64,000 nt of DNA, taken from positions 209,355-273,354 of the forward strand of contig JAWLHJ010000004.1 in NCBI GenBank assembly GCA_041690395.1. Reading direction: 5' to 3'. The position numbers and the translations under genes were made by a program. The notes under the pieces were generated by a model, which was not told the origin of the DNA, did not search any database, and saw only the letters and a list, made by a program, of their open reading frames with translations. Origin of the DNA: Longimicrobiales bacterium (GTDB taxonomy: Bacteria > Gemmatimonadota > Gemmatimonadetes > Longimicrobiales > Gaopeijiaceae). Positions 32,970 through 42,546 of the stretch are shown here, in pieces (the stretch's first letter is position 1; every line of letters starts with the position of its first letter).

Positions 32970-33452
32970 ATGAAGGAAGATCAGAACATGGAAGCCACCC
33001 GGGAGCCCAGCGAGGCGGTGCTGCGTGAGGCCCTCGAAGAGAGCGGCCAGCGGTTCACCGAACAGCGGGCGGCGGTCTACCGCTACCTGACGAGCACGGA
33101 CACCCATCCCACGGCGGACGAGGTGCTGGTCGCGGTGCGTCACGAGCTTCCGACGATCTCGCTCGCGACCGTGTACAAGAGCCTCGAGACCCTGGTCGGC
33201 TGCGGCCTCGCGGTCAAGCTCACGTATACCGACGCGTCATCGCGCTACGACGGTCGGACGGACCCCCATCATCACGCACGCTGCCTGGGATGCGGCAAGG
33301 TGGCAGACCTCCCCGGCAAGCTGCCTCAGCGGGAGATCGACGATCTCCGCGACCGGGCCCGGAACTTCACGGTGGTCGGCTACCGATTCGAGTTGTCCGG
33401 CTACTGCTCCACGTGTGTCCCCGAAGGGGGCCCCGCCCCGTTGCACGCCTAG
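32970..33452 (+). CDS. Fur-family regulator, PerR-like
   Basis: HPTADEV, ISLATVYKSL, SRYD..HHHARCLGCGKVAD, GYCSTC (two CxxC). Start may be 32988. Confidence 0.9.
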   Translation: MKEDQNMEATREPSEAVLREALEESGQRFTEQRAAVYRYLTSTDTHPTADEVLVAVRHELPTISLATVYKSLETLVGCGLAVKLTYTDASSRYDGRTDPHHHARCLGCGKVADLPGKLPQREIDDLRDRARNFTVVGYRFELSGYCSTCVPEGGPAPLHA

Positions 33453-33483
33453 CCTGGCCGCGCGCCACGGCTCCCCCCGCCGC

Positions 33484-35265
33484 ATGGGCTTCCTGAAGAC
33501 CCTCGCCCGATTCCCGTGCGCGGCGGTACTTTCGGCGGTCACTTGCATCGCGCCGGGGCTCGCGGACGCGCAGGAGGCGGAGGAGTTCCGTTCCGCCGCC
33601 GAGACGTCCATGCTCCGAGCCGAGACCATCGAGCTCAGGAGCGGGCTGGACCGCCTGCTTCTCGCCCCGTCATGGCGTGACGCCGAATGGGGTGTGCTGG
33701 TCGTCTCTCTGGACCATGGTGACACCCTCTACGCGGTCGATCCGTACAAGCCCCTCGCTCCCGCGTCGAACGTCAAGCTCATCACGACCGCCGCGGCCCT
33801 CCAGACGCTCGGCCCCGACTATCGCTTCGGAACGTATCTGATGACGAACGGGGAGGTGGAGGACGGCGTGCTCCACGGCGACCTCATCCTCTACGGGACG
33901 GGTGATCCGGGGATCTCGAGCCGTTTCCATTTCCGCCGCGACGAGGCCTTTCATCGCCTCGTCGACCAACTCGATTCGCTCGGAATCCGTGAGGTCCGTG
34001 GTGACCTGGTGGCCGACGCCTCCTTCCTGCCGGGCCCCCAGAGGCCCGAGGGGTGGGACCCGCGGGACCTGAACGACCACTTCACCGCAGCCGTATCGGC
34101 CCTCTCGTTCAACGAGAACGTGGTGTCCGTGCGCATCACCCCGGGTGACGTGGGCGCCCCTCCCCGGGTGCAGACGATACCCGACGATGCGGGGATGGAG
34201 GTTCTGAACCTCGCCGAAACGGTGCCGGGCAGCCGCCCTCGCGTGGCCATGCTGCGCGACGACCCGCTCGAGCCGGTACGCGTGGAGGGTACCCTCGGAG
34301 CGGGGGTCAGAGACGTGTGGCGTCAGTTCACGGTCTCCGACCCGACCGTGTTCACTGCCTCGGTCTTCCGCGCACTGCTCACCGATCGCGAGATCGACGT
34401 CCGGGGCGTCACCCGGACCGTGTCCCGCCCGGGGCGGTCGGACCTGCCTCGACTGTCGGCTCCCTTCGCGGGGAAGCGGGGTGTTCGGGTGCTGGCCAGG
34501 CACACTTCCGAGCCCCTGCAGAGTTATCTGGAAGTCGTCAACAAGCAGAGCCACAACCTTTTCGCGGAGTTGGTCTTCCGTGTCGTCGGTCGCTCCGTCG
34601 AGGGCGTGGGATCCACCGACGCGAGCGCGCGGGCCGTCGCCGCCACCCTCGCGGGCCTGGGGGTCGATACCACGGGCATGGTCCTCCTCGACGGGTCGGG
34701 GCTTTCGGCCGGCAACCGCGTGACCGCGCGCACGCTCGTCGACGTACTCGAGCGCATGGCGCAGTCGCCGTCCTGGGGCTACTACTGGGCCACGCTGCCG
34801 GAGGCCGGGCGGGCCCGGGAGCTGGGTCGCATGTATCGGACCGCGGCAGCAGGCAACCTGCGCGCCAAGACCGGGACCATCGAGCGGGTTTCCGCGCTCA
34901 GCGGGATCGTGCGGGCGGCCGACGGTGAGCGCCTGGCCTTCTCGATCCTACTGAATCAGGCGCCCTCGGTCGCCCGGGCCAAGGCCGTCGAGAACCAGAT
35001 CGGTGCTCGCCTGGCCTCGTTCGCGCGAGGGATGGGCTCGAGCATGGACGGTGAGCGTCTCGCCCAGACCGAAGCCCCTGGTCCCCCATACGCCGGGACC
35101 GAGCGACATCGCATCAGGCCGGGCGAGAACCTGACCGTCATCGCGCGGCGGTACGGCATCTCCATGGAAGCACTGCTGGGTGCCAATCCGAGTGTCGAGG
35201 CCAACACCCTCTTCGCCGGCCAATGGCTCGTCATCCCCACGGTTCAGGAAGCGGGCGGCGGCTGA
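33484..35265 (+). CDS. dacB: D-Ala-D-Ala carboxypeptidase/endopeptidase (S13, PBP4) with C-terminal LysM
   Basis: PASNVK (SxxK), SHN (SxN), DGSGLS, AKTGT; C-terminal GENLTVIARRYG LysM. Confidence 0.9.
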   Translation: MGFLKTLARFPCAAVLSAVTCIAPGLADAQEAEEFRSAAETSMLRAETIELRSGLDRLLLAPSWRDAEWGVLVVSLDHGDTLYAVDPYKPLAPASNVKLITTAAALQTLGPDYRFGTYLMTNGEVEDGVLHGDLILYGTGDPGISSRFHFRRDEAFHRLVDQLDSLGIREVRGDLVADASFLPGPQRPEGWDPRDLNDHFTAAVSALSFNENVVSVRITPGDVGAPPRVQTIPDDAGMEVLNLAETVPGSRPRVAMLRDDPLEPVRVEGTLGAGVRDVWRQFTVSDPTVFTASVFRALLTDREIDVRGVTRTVSRPGRSDLPRLSAPFAGKRGVRVLARHTSEPLQSYLEVVNKQSHNLFAELVFRVVGRSVEGVGSTDASARAVAATLAGLGVDTTGMVLLDGSGLSAGNRVTARTLVDVLERMAQSPSWGYYWATLPEAGRARELGRMYRTAAAGNLRAKTGTIERVSALSGIVRAADGERLAFSILLNQAPSVARAKAVENQIGARLASFARGMGSSMDGERLAQTEAPGPPYAGTERHRIRPGENLTVIARRYGISMEALLGANPSVEANTLFAGQWLVIPTVQEAGGG

Positions 35266-35278
35266 CGCTCGTCCCGGG

Positions 35279-35551
35279 TCAGCGTGCCGGAACACCACCT
35301 CGCCCGACCGCCGAACGCAACCGACGGTGCAGTTCCACATCCGACATGGTCTCGAGCGTGCGCTGTCCCGTTCGCTCGGTATTCCAGCGGATGTCTTCCA
35401 GGGGATACTCGATGGTGGGCTCGTCCGCAGGGCGGAGTACCATGTGGAAGCGGCCCTTGTAGTCCATTCCGGGCTCCTCGCGCACCAAGGCTTCCCAGAT
35501 CCGGCCTTCACGATCGGTGAATGTCATCATGGTTCCTTCCCGGTTCGTCAT
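35279..35551 (-). CDS. Small hypothetical protein (90 aa) coupled to the AraC gene
   Basis: ATG overlaps the AraC TGA (ATGA); FTDREGRIWEA...MSDVELHRRLRSA. Confidence 0.7.
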   Translation of the reverse strand: MTNREGTMMTFTDREGRIWEALVREEPGMDYKGRFHMVLRPADEPTIEYPLEDIRWNTERTGQRTLETMSDVELHRRLRSAVGRGGVPAR

Positions 35552-36348
35552 GCCACCGAGCTGAGCGCCCGGGGACGAATCAGAAGATCGCATTCATCGA
35601 CGAACCGTTCCAGAACCACACCGAATCCGCCGGCCTCGACGAGCTGTGTGGGCGTCATGCCGACATAGTTCCGTAGCGCCCGCCGGAAAGCGGATCCGCT
35701 CGAGTACCCGAGCTGACGCGACACGCTCTCGGCACTCCGCCCCGGCTCATCCAGCCACCGACCGGCGTGGAGGAGTCGCGACCAGACCAGCAGATGCCCG
35801 AGCGACGGCAGTCCGTGCCGCTCCAGACCCACGCTGAGGTGAGGGCGCGTGAGCTCCAGACGTTCGGCGACGTCCTCGGCCCCCCAGCCGCGCTGCGCCC
35901 CCTCGAGACACAGGCGAACCACCTCGGTCTCACGGCGTGGCAGCGACGGGCTGACCACCTTGATCACTGCGGAGGCCGTGCTCCTGCCGAGCGCCCGCCG
36001 AACCGTCACCGGTAGCTCCCCGACCATCCCGTCGACCGGAAGCAGGACCAGACCCTCGACTCCGGCCCTGCCCAGCCGAAAGAGCAACCGGGTGGAGAGT
36101 TCCTCTCCGGCGAGCAGGACGAACACGATGCTCGGATACAGCCGCCCCAGCTCGACCAGCGCGCCGTCGGGATCGTGGGCCGGGAGCGCGCGTCCATCGA
36201 TGAGGGTGCACGTCACCGCGTGCTCCCTGAGCGTCCATGTGAGCCGGGTCCACGTGGCCACCCGGATCAGGGCGTGCTCCTCGCCGAGGGCGAGTGTGGT
36301 CGCCTGCAGCATGGAGGAATTCCGCGTCAAAACCGTCGTCAGGGCCAT
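35548..36348 (-). CDS. AraC-family regulator with receiver-like N-terminal domain
   Basis: C-terminal SAESVSRQLGYSSGSAFRRALRNYVGMTPTQL AraC HTH; N-terminal alpha/beta segment (CTLID..YPSIVFVLL). Confidence 0.88.
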   Translation of the reverse strand: MALTTVLTRNSSMLQATTLALGEEHALIRVATWTRLTWTLREHAVTCTLIDGRALPAHDPDGALVELGRLYPSIVFVLLAGEELSTRLLFRLGRAGVEGLVLLPVDGMVGELPVTVRRALGRSTASAVIKVVSPSLPRRETEVVRLCLEGAQRGWGAEDVAERLELTRPHLSVGLERHGLPSLGHLLVWSRLLHAGRWLDEPGRSAESVSRQLGYSSGSAFRRALRNYVGMTPTQLVEAGGFGVVLERFVDECDLLIRPRALSSVA

Positions 36349-36476
36349 CGATCTTCGAAAAAGACATAGCTACGGTCCAAAAGGATACGTCGCTCCGCCT
36401 GGCTTTCAGAAAACTTGAGTTCAGCGGAACGAAGAACCGCCCCTACCGGGTTACCTCCAGACTAGGACCGCCTCGC

Positions 36477-36608
36477 ATGAAGACTCTCCGACGCTCCCTG
36501 CTCGTACTGCTCCTGACCGTCGGTGCCGCCGCCTGCGGCTCGTCCATCACCGCGCCGGACCATACTCCGGATCCCGGTCTCTTCCACACGCCCGATCCGG
36601 GACTCTAA
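36477..36608 (+). CDS. 43-aa exported pro-peptide / mini-lipoprotein with duplicated C-terminal HTPDPGL
   Basis: AGGA SD at 36464-36467; MKTLRRSLLVLLLTVGAAA-C-GSSITAPD-HTPDPGL-F-HTPDPGL-stop. Confidence 0.8.
   Translation: MKTLRRSLLVLLLTVGAAACGSSITAPDHTPDPGLFHTPDPGL
36561..36605 (+). repeat. Two 21-bp coding repeats (HTPDPGL x2) separated by one codon
   Basis: cat act ccg gat ccc ggt ctc vs cac acg ccc gat ccg gga ctc: 5 differences, all at third positions and synonymous. Confidence 0.9.
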
Positions 36609-36618
36609 GCCGGCTGCT

Positions 36619-38445
36619 TCAAACCGAAGCACCCGCGACAGCCCTCCGCATCTCTCGAAGTCCTTCGCGGACTTCCCGAGGTGCGGAGGGCTTCGTGTCT
36701 GCAGCCTTCTCGCTCTCGGTCGGCACATCTTCCTGAAGCAGCCGCTCGAGGGCTTCCTCCGAGCGGAAGAGCGTTCGGTTGAGTCCGAACTCCTCCGCGT
36801 GGCGGACCGCTCGCCGCAGCCACCTCTCCGCCGCGTCCCGCATGCCGAGCGCCTGGTACGACAGCCCCCGGTAGTACAGGATCTCGGCCTTCGCCGCTCT
36901 CGGACCCGACTCCCACCCGAGTGCGTCACACTCGGCCGCTCGCCGCTCGAAGTCACCGAGGTCCCCGCGTAGGGCCGCGAGGTACGCAAGTGCGTCGAGC
37001 GCGTACGTCCTGTAGTACACGTCGGTCGCGTCGCTGGCCACCACGGACCAGGCGTCCTCGGCCGCCGCATGGTCGCCGAGATCCACGAGGGCGCCCGCCA
37101 GGTTCGCGAGGCACCGGACACGTCCCGCTGCGTCCTCGTACGAGCCGACCGCGATCCACCCGTGGCGCAGCGCCACATCGAGATTGCCCGCGGCGTGCTC
37201 CAGGGCGAGCAGGCCGTGATGGATGGACGCGATCACGTCGCGGCTGCCCGAGCGGCCTGCGAGGTCGAGTGCGTCCTGATAGCCCGAGCGAGCTTGGGGC
37301 AGATTGCCGAGCTCCTGGCGTACGGCCGCAAGACCACCGAGGGATTGGGCGGCCTTCGCCGCGAAGCCCGCCGCGAGCGCCACCTCGTAGGCGACCTCGT
37401 AGGCCCGCACCGACGCCTCCCACCGCGCCGCACGACGCAGGACCCTGCCCCGGAAACGGGAAGCGTCCACAGCCGCGTCGGCGTACATCACAGCGGCCGC
37501 GGCATCGAAGGCACAGCGGTACAGCTCCACGGCGCCGTGGACGTGGCCCTCCGCTTCAGCACGCTCGCCGGCGGCGACCAACCCGTCCGCGGACGCCTCG
37601 AGGTCGCGGCTCGCGAGCGCTCCGAGGAGCGGCTCCCAGGCTTCGACCGGATCGCCACCCTTCCTGCAGCGACCAACCAGCTGGTCACGAACGGCATCGA
37701 TGCGCGCGCACCAGGCCTCTTCTGCCGTATACCCCACGTCACCGTCGACCAATCCCCGGGCGAGCCGCACGACCAGGAATCGTTGCTCGACCTTCGCGCT
37801 GACCTCGGGGCGGTCTTCCCGTCCCTCACAGTCCTGAAGAACCGGGAATCCGACGAAGCCTCTCGCCTCCGGGGCCCGGAGCCGCACGATTCCGTCATCG
37901 GATCCCGCATCGAGATCCTGATGGAGGAGCGCGCTCGCGCACTCCCCGGAGAGGAAGAGCGCCCGCTGCCGGTCTTCCTCGCCCAGGCGTGGCCGCGGTC
38001 CGACGGAATCGCAGACGAGGAACCAAGAACGGGCGCCGTCGCTCCCGAGCGCCACGGTGAAGATGCTTCCGGCATCCCCCAACTTCCTGCCCGGCGCCCC
38101 GGCCGAGTCGTACACGCCCGGCAGGCCGATCTCCCAGGCCCGCTCGAGGGGCTGCGCCGGAAACGCTCGCCGTGGTCGGTCGCTCATCAGATCGAGCAGG
38201 ACGTGCGGATGCGGCGAGGACTCGCCGTACTCGTCGATCCACACGGCGGCGGCCCGATCGGCACCCGTGATCTCACTGAGCTCACTGAGATGCGCGACGA
38301 CCGCGAGCCGAACGGGATCACCCGAATGGATGGCGCGCGCAAGCTGGAATCTCTGCCGCCTCCGGCTACGATGCTCGGAGAGGCCGACGACTTGAGTCCG
38401 GCCGGTACGCACCGCCCCGGATTCAGCGATATTTGTCGGGAGCAT
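36619..38445 (-). CDS. Cytoplasmic TPR protein with N-terminal GAF-like region
   Basis: C-terminal half has several ~40-aa helical repeats (e.g. AQSLGGLAAVRQELGNLPQARSGYQDALDL, RCLANLAGALVDLGDHAAAEDAW, EILYYRGLSYQALGMRDAAERWLRRA). N-terminal TGADRAAAVW..FTVALG..WFLVCD..FLSGECASAL looks GAF-like. No signal peptide. Confidence 0.8.
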   Translation of the reverse strand: MLPTNIAESGAVRTGRTQVVGLSEHRSRRRQRFQLARAIHSGDPVRLAVVAHLSELSEITGADRAAAVWIDEYGESSPHPHVLLDLMSDRPRRAFPAQPLERAWEIGLPGVYDSAGAPGRKLGDAGSIFTVALGSDGARSWFLVCDSVGPRPRLGEEDRQRALFLSGECASALLHQDLDAGSDDGIVRLRAPEARGFVGFPVLQDCEGREDRPEVSAKVEQRFLVVRLARGLVDGDVGYTAEEAWCARIDAVRDQLVGRCRKGGDPVEAWEPLLGALASRDLEASADGLVAAGERAEAEGHVHGAVELYRCAFDAAAAVMYADAAVDASRFRGRVLRRAARWEASVRAYEVAYEVALAAGFAAKAAQSLGGLAAVRQELGNLPQARSGYQDALDLAGRSGSRDVIASIHHGLLALEHAAGNLDVALRHGWIAVGSYEDAAGRVRCLANLAGALVDLGDHAAAEDAWSVVASDATDVYYRTYALDALAYLAALRGDLGDFERRAAECDALGWESGPRAAKAEILYYRGLSYQALGMRDAAERWLRRAVRHAEEFGLNRTLFRSEEALERLLQEDVPTESEKAADTKPSAPREVREGLREMRRAVAGASV

Positions 38446-38499: not shown

Positions 38500-39435
38500 A
38501 TGAAGCCCTCCTCGCCGCCCCTGGCCGCCGACCTGGGACTCCTCGGGCTCGCGGCCATCTGGGGCGTGAACTTCTCCGTCGTCAAAGTCGTACTCCGCGA
38601 GATGGATCCCTTCGCGTTGAACGCCCTGCGATTTCCTCTGGCGGCCCTGGCGTTCTGGCTCGTCCTGCGCGCCCGTGGAGGCATCAAGCGTCCCGCCGCC
38701 GAAGACGTTCCCCGAATTCTCCTGCTCGGCCTGGTCGGCAACGTCGTCTACCAGGTCTGCTTCATCCAGGGGCTGGACCTGACCCTGGCGGGCAACGCGA
38801 GCCTTCTGCTCGCCACGACCCCGATCTGGACGCTCGTCCTTTCCTCCGTGGCCGGTCACGAGCGTCCGAATCTCCGGGTCATGGCCGGGATCGGGTGCAC
38901 GCTCACGGGCATCGTCCTGATCGTCCTCGGGCGTGAAGGCGGATTGACGCTGCAGGCCTCGACCCTCAGAGGAGATCTACTCATGCTGGGCGCCGCCGTC
39001 CTGTGGTCGGCCTACACCGTCTGGGGACGCACGCCCGTCGCCCGCTACGGTCCCCTGAGGATGACCGCGTGGAGCCTCTGGATCGCCACGCCGGTGATCG
39101 TGCTCATGGGCATTCCGTCGCTCCGCTCCACCGAGCTGGCCGCGGTCTCACCGGGGGCCTGGCTCGGCGTGGTCTACGCCGGAGTCCTCTCGATCGCGGT
39201 GGCCTACGTGCTGTGGTACCGGGGCGTCCAACTCCTGGGCAACAGCCGCACGGCGGTGTACTCGAACCTCGTTCCCGTGATGGCCCTGGTCACCGCGTGG
39301 CTGTGGCTCGGTGAGACACCGGCGGGCGGGCAGCTGGCCGGAGCGTCCGTGATCCTGGCCGGGCTCTGGCTGTCGCGAACCGGTCAAGCACCCGGTCCGA
39401 GCTCCTTGCGGTGGCGGAGCTCCGGGAATTCGTAG
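38500..39435 (+). CDS. DMT/EamA-family transporter
   Basis: IWGVNF, ALRF, GNASLLLATTPIW, YSNLVPV; about ten TM segments. Confidence 0.9.
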   Translation: MKPSSPPLAADLGLLGLAAIWGVNFSVVKVVLREMDPFALNALRFPLAALAFWLVLRARGGIKRPAAEDVPRILLLGLVGNVVYQVCFIQGLDLTLAGNASLLLATTPIWTLVLSSVAGHERPNLRVMAGIGCTLTGIVLIVLGREGGLTLQASTLRGDLLMLGAAVLWSAYTVWGRTPVARYGPLRMTAWSLWIATPVIVLMGIPSLRSTELAAVSPGAWLGVVYAGVLSIAVAYVLWYRGVQLLGNSRTAVYSNLVPVMALVTAWLWLGETPAGGQLAGASVILAGLWLSRTGQAPGPSSLRWRSSGNS

Positions 39436-40157
39436 TAGATCACCCCTTCCTGGGAGATCTCCGAGCGGACGCGGAAGTCGTCATCCATGCTCGTGAGGAT
39501 CTTCTCGGCCGCGGAGAGTGAGAGGTTCAGGTCCGCGGCGACCTCGCTGACGGTGAGGGTCCCGCCCTTCTGCCCGGCGAGCCGCAGAATCTTACGCTGC
39601 AATCCTCGGATGACCGCTTCGCGGCGTCCCTGGAGGCCCTGCCAACCCCAGTAGAACGTCAGCGACCCACCCATGCCGATGACGCTCCCGACGGCCAACA
39701 GGACCGCCTCGGCCTCCACGACGCCGATCAACATGACGAGCGTGGCGACGAGGACCATGGCCACACCCAGGATCCGGCGCTTGATCCCGCCGCTCGGAAG
39801 CGGCTCGTCCGGCTTCGACTCGATCAGCCGACGCTCGGGCTCCGGACCGGTGACGCTCAGGACGCGCGCCGCGTTCTCCCAACCCAGCCCGCAGCGGGGG
39901 CACACCAGATGATTACGCCGCGCCAGCCAGTAGAGGAGTCCACCCAACCCCCAGGTGAAGAGGCTCACGCCGACGGCGAGCGCCACGTGCCCCGACCTCC
40001 TGAAGTAGGGCATCCCTTCACCCTGGTACGAGCACCTGGGACATACCTTCACGCGATCCACGCGCGGCACCAGGCCGCCGCGGAGCGCAACGGCCCCACA
40101 CGTGGGACACCGCGTGTCGCCGGGCTCGAGAGTCTCACCACAGGTCGAGCAATGCAT
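39384..40157 (-). CDS. Double zinc-ribbon membrane protein with C-terminal winged-helix-like domain
   Basis: CSTC..CPTC and CPRC..CPRC pairs, TM helices, C-terminal LTVSEVAADLNLSLSAAEKIL..YYEFPEL. Start may be 40199. Confidence 0.72.
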   Translation of the reverse strand: MHCSTCGETLEPGDTRCPTCGAVALRGGLVPRVDRVKVCPRCSYQGEGMPYFRRSGHVALAVGVSLFTWGLGGLLYWLARRNHLVCPRCGLGWENAARVLSVTGPEPERRLIESKPDEPLPSGGIKRRILGVAMVLVATLVMLIGVVEAEAVLLAVGSVIGMGGSLTFYWGWQGLQGRREAVIRGLQRKILRLAGQKGGTLTVSEVAADLNLSLSAAEKILTSMDDDFRVRSEISQEGVIYYEFPELRHRKELGPGA

Positions 40158-40305
40158 CGGATATCGGATCACGTTTCGGGGATCGCGGACGACCGGCATC
40201 CGAGCTTCCCCGGTCGCAGTTCCCCTACGACGGAGCGCGTCAGAAGATTCACCGAGGTCCGGCGGCGGGTCGGCCGAACCCCCGACTGCACGCCGGCCGC
40301 GGTGC

Positions 40306-42546
40306 TCAGAAGCGCCGCACCACGCGGAGCGTGGCGCCGGCTCCGGAGGTGAACGGGCCACCGTGCGCACCGCCCATCGTCAGGGTCAGCGTCCCGCCGT
40401 CGGGCGGAAGGAGCCTGATGTACCGCATCGAGGAGGCGCGCAGCTCGGTCGTGAACGCGAAATCACCCGGTCCCCCCGTCGGCACGTTGAACACCAACGG
40501 ACTCTGCAGGAAGCGCGGAAGGTCGAAGTCGGGGTAGGTGAACGGCCCGGTCGCGTCGTCTCCGCGATCGAAGAAGACGGCGGTGGTCCATCTCGAGAAG
40601 AGCTCCTCCCACGTCGTGCCGGTCTGGGCTTCGATGTTCGCCGTGCCGGTGAGCGTGGTCCGGGTGAGCCGCCCGAGCACGTCGGGGCCGTCCTGCTGGT
40701 GCAGGTAGAGCATGAAGAGGAAGCCGGCCCCGCGCTCCGCGAGGGATCCGCTCCCGCTCGAGACGATGAGGCTGACCGTGTCCGGCTGCTCCAGGTAGAG
40801 CAACGAGCGGCGTCGGTTCCCGTCGCGGAACAGCTCGGCCTCCGCGGAGTCCGCGGGCGCCGTATAGTCACGCGCGACCAGCTCCTCGGCCATCTGCGCG
40901 AGTCCCTCGAGCACCCACAGGGCGTCCTGCGACCCACCCATCCTCACCACGCGCTCGCTGAAGTGCACCATGTGCTGGAACTCGTGCGCGAGGATGGACG
41001 GCACGACATCCAGGACCTGCCGGCGGGTACGGGCATCCCCGTGCACGGCGTTCGGGTCGGGCACGAGCGCGTAGAAGACCTCGCCGGCGTTGCTGTTCGA
41101 CAGCTCCGGCAGGAGATCACGCCCGTAGAAGAAGCCACCCACGAAGCTGTTCGAGTTCCTCTCGGTGAGCCTGTTCACGACTGGTGTGAACAGGATGACG
41201 ACCCGGTCGTTCCCGTCGAGGTCCGTCGGCGCGCCGAACGTTTGGGTGACTCTGGCGTGGATGGGCGCGTCGAAGCGAGCCCCGACGTCCTCGAGGTCGC
41301 CGGCTTCGAAGCCGCCCGCCGGCGATGCGTCGTCCACATACACCACGGCCCTGGCGCTGACGTGACGAGCGGTCGCCGTAATCTGGTCGAAGCGGGCATC
41401 CGGATCGTCCGAGCCGTTGAAGACCCAGAACGTCCGGGACTCGCCGACGGTCGGGACCGCGGCGGGAGCGCCCGGCGCACGAGCCGCGCCTACAGGTGTC
41501 GGGGCTGGCCCGCCCCCGGCGAGCCGACGCTCCAGCAACCCCGCCTCCTCCTCGCGCAGCCGGAGGTCGAACGTGCCCTGCGCGTCGGTCGCAGGCTCGA
41601 GCGAGGGGCGTGAAACGGGCGCGGTGAGTGTCGTGGCGGACGGGACGGGCGGCGCCGTGGCCACCCCGCTGTAACCGAGCCAGGCCAGGCTCATCGGGTA
41701 GCGTGCGCCCGCGATCGTCCCCGTCATCTGGGGGATGATGATGTACTCGGCCGGCTCCCCGTCGACCCGCTCACCCGGGAGCCGGACGCAGGCGCCCCCG
41801 TCCGGGTCGCTCAGGTCGACGTACTGGCCCGGAAGCATCGGCTCGATGGGCCCGCCCTCCGTGACGGCGACGCCGATCGTGCCACTCGACACGGCCCCCA
41901 ACGCGACACGAACCCTCACGTCGTCGCGCTGGGGAAGGCAGGTCGGCACCTCGACCTCGAGCCTCGTTCCCGACGCCTGGAGCACGCGGGCGCGGACGTT
42001 CGAGAAGTACACGAGGTTCTGGTCGGCGACCGGGCTGAAGTTCTGGCCACCGAGCACGAGCGTGGCTCCGACGGGCGCTTCGAGCGGCTCGACAGAGGTC
42101 AGGCGGGGCGTGCCAACAACCCAGGCCCGGAGTTCCGCCCTCGCACTTTCCTGCTCGACGACGGTCGCGACGATGGTGACCTGACCCTCCGTCGACCCGA
42201 GCCGCAGCGTGATCTCGGTGGCGCCCGCTTCGTCGGTGATCGTGGCCTCGGGGCCCTGGAGCTCTGCGTCGCCACCCGTCACGACCCACCGGACCGTGAT
42301 GTCCTCCGCCGGAAGCCCGGAATCGGCCTTACGCACGATCACGCGGAGCGGATCCGGGAGCTCGGTGCCGGCCGTGCCGTGCTGCTCCTCCCCTCCCGCG
42401 ACGACGATCTCCAGGGGATCGAGGCCCGGGGTGACCGGCTCTCTGGCGCATGCGGCCAGGGTGAGGGAAACCGCCATGGCGAGGACCGTGCGGACACGGG
42501 CCGAACAGGCCGACCCGGCCGGCCTGGCTCCACGCCGGCCGGTCAT
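40306..42546 (-). CDS. Lipoprotein zinc metallopeptidase with Ig-like/IPT domains
   Basis: Lipobox LAAC, Big-1-like and IPT/TIG-like segments, LAHEFQHMVH..EGLAQ gluzincin-type motif. Confidence 0.78.
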   Translation of the reverse strand: MTGRRGARPAGSACSARVRTVLAMAVSLTLAACAREPVTPGLDPLEIVVAGGEEQHGTAGTELPDPLRVIVRKADSGLPAEDITVRWVVTGGDAELQGPEATITDEAGATEITLRLGSTEGQVTIVATVVEQESARAELRAWVVGTPRLTSVEPLEAPVGATLVLGGQNFSPVADQNLVYFSNVRARVLQASGTRLEVEVPTCLPQRDDVRVRVALGAVSSGTIGVAVTEGGPIEPMLPGQYVDLSDPDGGACVRLPGERVDGEPAEYIIIPQMTGTIAGARYPMSLAWLGYSGVATAPPVPSATTLTAPVSRPSLEPATDAQGTFDLRLREEEAGLLERRLAGGGPAPTPVGAARAPGAPAAVPTVGESRTFWVFNGSDDPDARFDQITATARHVSARAVVYVDDASPAGGFEAGDLEDVGARFDAPIHARVTQTFGAPTDLDGNDRVVILFTPVVNRLTERNSNSFVGGFFYGRDLLPELSNSNAGEVFYALVPDPNAVHGDARTRRQVLDVVPSILAHEFQHMVHFSERVVRMGGSQDALWVLEGLAQMAEELVARDYTAPADSAEAELFRDGNRRRSLLYLEQPDTVSLIVSSGSGSLAERGAGFLFMLYLHQQDGPDVLGRLTRTTLTGTANIEAQTGTTWEELFSRWTTAVFFDRGDDATGPFTYPDFDLPRFLQSPLVFNVPTGGPGDFAFTTELRASSMRYIRLLPPDGGTLTLTMGGAHGGPFTSGAGATLRVVRRF

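Follow-up and report, generated by a model that had tools for sequence, protein, structure and literature searches.

A candidate Rap-Phr-like peptide-signalling cassette in the Gemmatimonadota

In a 64,000-nucleotide stretch of DNA from a Longimicrobiales bacterium (contig JAWLHJ010000004.1, positions 209,355 to 273,354 of the forward strand; hereafter the window), a short precursor with a repeated tail, a tetratricopeptide repeat (TPR) protein and an AraC-type regulator are encoded side by side, which raises the question of whether they form a peptide-signalling system. Intracellular peptide quorum sensing by TPR receptors is treated as a trait of the Bacillota (PMC10075063, PMC11343458, PMC13609882). 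We favour, with moderate confidence, the answer that the cassette is a Rap-Phr-like module, in which a lipid-anchored repeat precursor would release a peptide that is re-imported, binds the groove of a receptor with GAF and TPR domains, and thereby controls the AraC regulator. The elements concerned, in window coordinates, are as follows.

36619..38445, minus strand: gene for a GAF-TPR protein of 608 amino acids (aa), candidate peptide receptor (Pfam, AlphaFold2 (AF2) model, fold searches)
36477..36608, plus strand: pro-peptide gene, 43 aa, with signal peptide, Cys20 (predicted lipidation), 8-residue linker and two HTPDPGL units split by F
36561..36605, plus strand: two coding repeats, candidate ligand HTPDPG or HTPDPGL (codon comparison of the copies)
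35548..36348, minus strand: 266-aa regulator with a receiver-fold domain (1-122) and a C-terminal AraC helix-turn-helix (HTH) (Pfam, profiles, model)
36349..36476, no strand: divergent intergenic region with a conserved motif, candidate operator or promoter (motif search)

A conserved cassette with a repeat-bearing precursor

An earlier reading of the DNA letters (the sequence-only reading) had proposed such a cassette, and its description of the locus was borne out: the four open reading frames (ORFs) lie where it placed them, and a sequence check returned its spacings of 10 bp between the stops of the 43-aa and 608-aa ORFs and 128 bp from the 43-aa ORF to the AraC start (36348). The 608-aa protein matched TPR_12 (E 1.6e-9) and the 266-aa protein HTH_18 (E 5e-12), as assigned, and the Pfam scan of the 43-aa ORF gave no match. 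The host genome (4.33 Mb, 69% G+C), whose closest named relatives are Gemmatimonadota, encodes LspA, one complete Opp/Dpp-type ATP-binding cassette (ABC) locus and LpxC, in agreement with the lipopolysaccharide (LPS)-bearing host that had been supposed.

We then collected GAF-TPR orthologues, of which 133 remained as a core set after duplicates and genes cut at the 3' end were dropped; in 124 of these the downstream flank extended for 400 bp or more. Facing 122 of the 124 receptors, at a median gap of 17.5 bp, is a convergent small ORF whose signal peptide ends in Cys (119 under the stricter filter of the control), whereas only 2 of 2,636 gene-like ORFs of the host genome have a convergent lipobox small ORF, one of them being the present locus. 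The AraC gene follows 105 of the 106 core receptors with enough flank. The sequence-only reading was to be given up if TPR homologues had neither neighbour; both are present. The two core misses are an assembly gap inside visible repeats (L178) and a locus that has lost its peptide and AraC genes (L158), the latter keeping the receptor and the small gene that normally lies downstream of AraC; in a separate case (L237) the receptor frame ends early. Since the relatives are not independent, these locus counts show conservation and do not amount to a p-value. The three-gene cassette is real and conserved across the Gemmatimonadota.

Among 72 more distant receptors, the small gene was present in 41 and absent from 31, and AraC lay downstream in 34, upstream in 23 and was unseen in 15, some flanks being short. 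The precursor remains stop-to-stop with the receptor also in 4 loci whose AraC gene now sits upstream and in 10 that lack it. Conversely, 26 receptors without a peptide gene keep AraC adjacent, 19 with it upstream and 7 downstream, so the receptor-AraC link survives both rearrangement and peptide loss.

Genome searches covered the Gemmatimonadota. Receptor homologues occurred in 48 of 251 genomes of the class (single-sequence search), 132 of 201 of the order (profile search, including the unpublished G447, in which weaker matches may include other TPR proteins) and 107 of 301 of the family, together with 80 of 106 metagenome loci returned; among the genomes searched, whole genera gave no match (for example, 0 of 19 in g2). 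Across the phylum, 191 of 301 genomes (including the unpublished G307) had a match to the AraC protein. Two labels outside the phylum appeared among the matches, one Atlas cluster assigned to Ignavibacteriota and one protein of a metagenome-assembled genome assigned to Thioalkalivibrio. The plasmid search returned no homologue, none of 38 candidate stretches on viral contigs was a relative, and PHROGs and NCBIfam held no family at cut-off.

The small ORF, annotated as an unnamed protein on 9 public contigs, behaves in these comparisons as a gene under selection as a protein. Its basic and hydrophobic signal ending AAA-C and its tail, HTPDPGL-F-HTPDPGL, are as first described. The two units differ at 5 codons, all synonymous with 0 non-synonymous, and over the first 20 codons the same-genus genome G192 shows 8 synonymous changes and 1 non-synonymous change. 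Core-clade precursors (122 orthologous loci) are 29-98 aa long with Cys at 18-23, and 99 of them carry 2-10 tandem units, with a period of seven in 92 of the 99 (HSPDPGQ x7, GSPDPGQ x10, YTPGPNS x7, IQPGTGN x6 and HTIGSGN x3 are examples). Comparison of neighbouring copies in 101 genes gave 1,188 identical codon pairs, 714 with a synonymous difference and 24 with a non-synonymous one; copies were chosen at 4 or more matches in 6, a choice that somewhat favours few non-synonymous differences.

These counts support the repeat as a selected unit, and HTPDPGL remains a candidate ligand. The seventh residue varies (L, E, M, F) among close relatives, leaving HTPDPG as the constant core, and the ends of the mature peptide may differ from those of the heptapeptide. 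At least two residues follow the last six-residue core in 24 of 120 precursors. Unit diversity is high, with 78 different units in 120 loci, and Longimicrobium-type genomes encode at least six paralogous receptors with different tails. Among these genomes (L063-L082), many paralogous cassettes have tails ending GSG-G/N, one (L082) has two tandem precursor genes, and seven receptors that form a clade lack a peptide gene, have a groove that looks intact and lie directly upstream of AraC.

A lipobox has Leu, Val or Ile at -3, small residues at -2 and -1, and Cys at +1. Cys follows the basic and hydrophobic signal peptide in 122 of 122 precursors, having been part of the precursor selection filter; the neighbouring small residues were not all forced by it. 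Ala stands at -1 in 113 of 122 and a small residue at -2. The present precursor has Ala at -3, as found in 52 of 122; Leu or Val occupies this position in 31. Lipidation by the signal peptidase II (SPII) route is therefore only predicted, given the filter and the residues at -3. A Cys pair lies in the linker of 44 of 120 core precursors, and families f5 and f8 include many single-unit precursors with a Cys-flanked tail (L011-L032); both arrangements suggest disulphide loops formed after export. In one locus (L183:3240-3520, the same locus as L135), an in-frame stop lies just before the repeats while receptor and AraC are intact, possibly a non-producer that still listens.

Co-change of the repeat unit and the receptor groove

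If the repeated unit is read by the TPR protein, the two should change together, as the sequence-only reading had proposed to check. We paired 120 receptors and units (of the 122, a precursor with a premature stop and another whose register was ambiguous were left out; eight units were assigned by hand). By mutual information, the best partners of unit positions 1, 3, 4, 5 and 7 were A487/D484, Y481, C445, G370 and S407, respectively, all of them on A helices, the helices by which a TPR groove is lined (PMC3601957).

To control for ancestry, a tree was built without seven of these helices and changes on shared branches were counted. Unit position 1 (22 changes) stood out with D484, as 8.0 of the 10 D484 changes fell on the same branches against 1.1 expected (z 7.3; rerun 7.4). 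Y525 came second (z 5.2; rerun 5.9), and all six top receptor columns for position 1 are on groove-lining A helices, the four after D484 and Y525 being C-terminal. As controls, 20 signal and linker positions reached at most z 4.0 and 102,879 AraC-by-receptor column pairs at most z 5.3, and accordingly only the pair of position 1 and D484 clearly passes. In the residues themselves, 100 of the 101 loci with His or Tyr at position 1 have D484, as against 4 of the 19 with other residues there. Unit position 1 thus co-changes with groove residue D484 beyond the controls in these alignments. Positions 3 (Y481, 116 of 117) and 4 (C445, 111 of 113) gave near-perfect tables and were not counted, as each rests on 3 changes. 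The signal peptide was likewise set aside as a ligand, the signal and linker positions of the precursor staying within the control maximum given above.

The alternative that the small gene encodes an ordinary envelope lipoprotein under AraC control, without TPR binding and with co-variation due to shared ancestry, seems to us very improbable. It would account for the lipobox-like signal with its invariant Cys; TPR folds are generic, the associations of positions 3 and 4 are as thin as stated, and tests on independent pairs miss 0.05. Yet position 1 and D484 share change branches far beyond any control, the precursor stays stop-to-stop with the receptor where AraC has moved or gone, and copy number runs from 1 to 10 while the unit is under purifying selection, as in polyprotein pheromone precursors.

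For a Rap-Phr-like module, the location of D484 further implies a peptide polarity, with the N-terminus at the C-terminal TPRs, as in RapF-PhrF and Rap3T. In RapF and Rap3T, Asp338 in the C-terminal TPRs anchors one end of the peptide, the N-terminus, and Gln182/183 the other (PMC3601957, PMC11343458). In an approximate mapping by the end points of most Rap alignments, with an offset of about 185, RapF Tyr300 and Asp338 fall near receptor positions 485 and 523, and Gln183 and Arg223 near 368 and 408; phi105 Rap and NprR align to the receptor one repeat later than most Rap proteins.

Receptor, regulator and known TPR-peptide systems

The AF2 model of the receptor (mean predicted local distance difference test score, pLDDT, 91.7) shows an alpha/beta domain followed by helical repeats. 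The N-terminal domain matches the GAF region of a phytochrome (residues 43-176; Z 12.7, root-mean-square deviation (rmsd) 3.3, 128 residues), and the helical region (217-556) comprises a part resembling a three-helix bundle plus TPRs, residues 217-280 aligning with Rap proteins from their residues 4-9 on. TPR_12 was found in 65 of 65 members. As had been claimed, the TPR protein has no HTH, neither in Pfam scans of these 65 members nor in the model, and it has no signal peptide or transmembrane segment (maximal hydropathy 1.23 over 19 residues). GAF occurs only in the family-level clade, GAF-less relatives being about 410-460 aa long. A stand-alone 166-aa paralogue of the GAF-like domain, with no TPRs or peptide gene, is encoded elsewhere in the genome (G000 C1:542026-542526, L083).

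Structural comparison returned the Rap-peptide complex 4gyo (Z 20.8, rmsd 3.9, 273 residues), RapI (Z 20.1), RapH (Z 18.2, 327 residues, 217-556 on 4-370) and RapF (Z 17.2), with NprR at Z 15.3-16.7 and PlcR at Z 13.8; in profile searches, eukaryotic and designed TPR proteins rank first. The modelled fold is compatible with Rap and is not proof of kinship. Within the helical region, R337 is present in all 117 receptor rows covering the position, and R222, F223 and R227 (window about 37765-37782, minus strand) are 95-97% conserved in the core clade. The helix bearing the latter three corresponds in the alignment to the beginning of the three-helix bundle by which Rap proteins act on a response regulator, and these residues are largely kept in the peptide-less f2 receptors; residues 222-227 are a candidate surface for an output partner. 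Degenerate groove positions mark the 19 peptide-less receptors that have AraC upstream. When receptor 195-608 was co-folded with pro-peptide 14-43, the score was 0.03 against a mark of 0.32, in a design without control runs, which is uninformative either way. Taken together, the co-change and the Rap-like fold uphold the TPR protein as candidate receptor; binding, release and re-import are steps that we infer.

Canonical receivers carry Lys after strand 5, Thr or Ser after strand 4 and an acidic pair after strand 1. Residues 1-122 of the AraC protein have a receiver fold (profile matches to FleR and HupR receivers; model pLDDT 92; Z 17.6, rmsd 1.9, 116 residues) and Asp51 is kept in 112 of 124 proteins, whereas the conserved Lys is missing (103-104 are L/S/A and R/P/G), as is the Thr/Ser (80 is mostly A or G), and a single Asp or Asn at position 10 stands in place of the acidic pair. 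Without Lys and Thr/Ser, ordinary phosphorylation is unlikely and a protein partner plausible; on the model, the protein is a pseudo-receiver-AraC regulator. A second receiver-like-AraC paralogue (G000 C1:107834-108664, 30% identity) sits downstream of apparent extracytoplasmic function (ECF) sigma factor and anti-sigma genes with no TPR or peptide gene nearby, and at L015 a small lone-receiver-like ORF follows AraC.

A conserved motif occupies 36351-36368 of the intergenic region; a second half-site follows at a distance of 21 bp (36378-36388), and 36412-36416 form a short element. Of 122 loci, 116 have the motif directly ahead of the AraC start, and its profile is most similar to itself at a lag of 21. 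On the other side of AraC lies one further conserved gene.

35279..35530, minus strand: conserved small protein downstream of AraC, probably 83 aa (90 aa if from 35551) (homologues, start spacing)

A homologue of this gene was present in 91 of 106 core loci; its Atlas relatives are all hypothetical proteins of Gemmatimonadota, and it was seen only in the family-level clade. The sequence-only reading had taken it for a 90-aa ORF translationally coupled to AraC, which is probably wrong. An ATGA overlap with AraC exists at the present locus, and the gene has its own ribosome-binding site before 35530. In homologues, some 30-45 bp separate the AraC stop from the start codon, and in the close relative L001 no overlap exists in frame, so that an uncoupled 83-aa gene starting at 35530 is more likely.

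These neighbours bear on what the receptor acts upon. An improbable alternative, in our estimate, accepts the peptide-receptor pair and gives it another target, either the 83-aa protein or unlinked response regulators as for Rap phosphatases, with AraC only driving expression of the cassette. A motif directly at the AraC start fits plain autoregulation, receptor and AraC columns do not co-change, the 83-aa gene is common in core loci, and AraC was unseen beside 15 of 72 non-core receptors (in flanks of which some were short). Against another target, AraC is adjacent in 105 of 106 core and 57 of 72 non-core loci, in two layouts and also after peptide loss; its receiver lacks the phosphorylation residues and hence needs another input; and the restriction of the 83-aa gene to one family-level clade speaks against that protein.

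With the AraC protein as candidate target, the cassette likely works like Rap-Phr, by analogy. We compared it with RapF-ComA-PhrF, RapH-Spo0F, RapI, and the Rap proteins of pLS20, phi3T and phi105 (Bacillus, plasmids, phages). Both have a cytoplasmic TPR receptor without HTH beside a short pro-peptide, for which export is predicted here; receptor 217-556 superposes on whole Rap proteins, including their N-terminal helical part; the inferred polarity is that of RapF and Rap3T; and the candidate target is a response-regulator-type protein, the class on which Rap proteins act (PMC3601957, PMC3035606, PMC3246441). Duplicated units, paralogue expansion and orphans are shared and already known for Rap-Phr, where the cases considered here have two units (PMC11343458, PMC5199041). 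Unlike Rap-Phr, the cassette has an LPS-bearing host, a predicted lipoprotein precursor, a convergent layout, up to 10 identical head-to-tail units and an adjacent dedicated pseudo-receiver-AraC gene; its receptor has the extra GAF domain and a replaced anchoring Asn; and no homologue was found in the plasmids or viral contigs searched.

NprR-NprX, PlcR-PapR and AimR-AimP share the TPR superhelix and a peptide of 6-8 residues from the C-terminal part of an adjacent precursor, a candidate peptide in our case. NprR, PlcR and AimR bind DNA themselves, whereas the cassette receptor has no HTH and keeps a separate AraC gene beside it. In Enterococcus, the signals cCF10 and cAD1 (PrgX/TraA), which act on RRNPP-type receptors, are cut from the signal sequences of unlinked large lipoproteins. 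The cassette resembles these in the origin of its peptide from a (predicted) lipoprotein precursor and differs in that its signal-peptide positions do not co-change with the receptor while the repeated C-terminal unit does. Atypical response regulators with a receiver fused to an AraC HTH offer a further likeness, from which the cassette departs in that its AraC is tied to a TPR protein and no histidine kinase gene lies in the window neighbourhood.

RRNPPA systems are delimited by a pro-peptide of 10-100 aa with a Sec signal (SPII only when relaxed), a receptor of 250-500 aa with TPRs, and adjacency (PMC10075063). Precursor length, TPRs and direct adjacency all lie within these bounds, and export would probably proceed by the SPII route. 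The receptor, at 608 aa, exceeds the length limit because of its GAF domain, the host lies outside the Bacillota and their mobile elements, and RRNPP receptors have a strictly conserved Asn that anchors the peptide backbone (N227 in RapF; PMC3601957), which is not kept. RRNPP signalling further involves extracellular proteases that free the mature peptide, its return through Opp and its binding to the receptor; of this route, the genome has its one Opp/Dpp-type ABC locus. Because receptor length, Asn and host range all depart, we do not file the cassette as an RRNPP member. We found no description of such a TPR-peptide system in the Gemmatimonadota in the literature covered, which includes few subscription papers. 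Relative to the sequence-only reading, the receptor GAF domain, the AraC pseudo-receiver, the arrays of up to 10 copies, the peptide-less orphans and the conserved DNA motif are new.

Proposed route of the signal and neighbouring features

In the Rap-Phr-like module that we propose, the precursor would be exported as a lipid-anchored polyprotein, and proteolysis outside the cytoplasm would cut free the repeated C-terminal unit, HTPDPG(L), tandem copies raising the signal yield per precursor. The peptide would return through the Opp/Dpp-type ABC importer of the genome and bind the GAF-TPR groove so that its N-terminus faces the C-terminal TPRs (D484, Y525), with G370/S407 and the invariant R337 on the side of its C-terminus. 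The receptor would then control the pseudo-receiver-AraC regulator by protein-protein contact, and the regulator would bind the conserved intergenic motif. Lineage-specific units may give kin specificity, and the GAF domain may add a second, small-molecule input. The data under this scheme are the triad, the selection on the unit, the invariant Cys, the Rap-like and receiver folds, and the co-change of position 1 with D484; every biochemical step is our extrapolation from them.

Several results weigh against the scheme. In the co-change analysis, Y525 is level with the largest control and thus borderline, the pairs of position 5 with G370 and position 7 with S407 (z 2.9-3.7) stay within the controls, and the independent-pair tests gave a median p of 0.0625, although their direction was the same (4.8 of 6 and 5.1 of 8 concordant, 0-0.1 discordant). 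In the fold comparison, the eukaryotic TPR proteins TSK (Z 20.8) and LGN (Z 20.1) score as high as Rap, and the profile search lists one Rap, at E 3.8e-8, last among the 60 matches listed. The equivalent of the RNPP anchoring Asn, which lies near H410 or N448 depending on repeat register, is not kept: position 410 is His in 94 of 120, and position 448, Asn in the present receptor, is Asn in 2 of 120 and Asp in most non-core clades. Between receptor and AraC, the 102,879 column pairs gave no co-change signal above the null tail. Target genes did not emerge, as the motif search finds one site in the genome, that of the present locus, from which no regulon can be derived. No protease or importer gene lies within the cassette, and a peptide of 0.6-0.9 kDa must cross the outer membrane twice for action between cells.

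An alternative is a cell-autonomous circuit, in which the peptide does bind the TPR protein but the receptor reads unexported precursor, or peptide set free and recaptured in the cell's own periplasm, and so reports Sec or lipoprotein processing, periplasmic proteolysis or outer-membrane leakiness instead of cell density. This explains the same linkage and co-change, and Bacillota have no outer membrane to act as a barrier; the invariant Cys would tether the precursor to the membrane, and spacer-free head-to-tail units, with residues beyond the last core in a fifth of precursors, suit binding of the uncut repeat. We nevertheless hold it unlikely. A self-monitor needs no diversity, yet the many distinct units and the paralogues with different tails form the pattern of kin-specific signals, and the linker Cys pairs point to an oxidising, exported location.

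Returning to the Rap-Phr-like module, a wider claim would be phylum-wide peptide quorum sensing in the Gemmatimonadota, with lipid-anchored polyprotein pheromones of up to ten identical heptapeptides processed in the envelope, peptides passing between cells, Rap-like receptors that switch a dedicated pseudo-receiver-AraC regulator, dozens of kin codes, genomes with several systems, eavesdropping orphans and a second signal through GAF. It would place peptide quorum sensing of the intracellular type in a Gram-negative phylum; to us its chances appear evenly balanced. If true, finding a conserved counterpart in a phylum that is LPS-bearing, abundant and little studied would shift the Bacillota-only boundary and raise the question of how a peptide signal leaves and re-enters a two-membrane cell, and why it comes from a lipoprotein. 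In the family, each of 78 natural unit variants comes with its receptor, and a link between a single groove residue and a single peptide position is at hand, so that specificity is testable with synthetic peptides and purified protein, and host culture is unnecessary.

The cassette is flanked by an EamA transporter gene (38500-39435, plus strand), a gene for a zinc-ribbon membrane protein (39384-40370, minus strand) and a DacB-LysM gene (33415-35265, plus strand), which accompany it in 30, 42 and 38 of 47 long core loci, respectively. This is probably plain synteny, the zinc-ribbon gene being unexplained. We also considered that the precursor yields a ribosomally synthesised and post-translationally modified peptide (RiPP); the flanking genes inspected, those for the EamA transporter, DacB-LysM, the zinc-ribbon protein and Fur, included none that we recognised as encoding a modifying enzyme, and a HaaT match of one distant relative, far below cut-off, lends no support. 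In two runs of one soil metatranscriptome study, contigs of close relatives span the peptide and receptor genes (shares 0.13 and 0.08); we make no claim of expression from them, as DNA carry-over is possible and the contigs have no strand information.

A scan of the locus for sigma-70 promoters and terminators returned 0 of each. One further feature stood out against shuffled sequences.

36634..36697, plus strand: long stable hairpin, possible terminator or mRNA end (shuffling z-score)

Just past the stop of the peptide gene, the hairpin falls within the 3'-terminal part of the receptor gene (z -5.9, 0 of 200 shuffles). Across the family, stability at this place has a median z of -1.8 against -0.1 in control windows and a lower quartile of -3.9 against -1.0. 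It may provide an end or protection for one of the two convergent transcripts.

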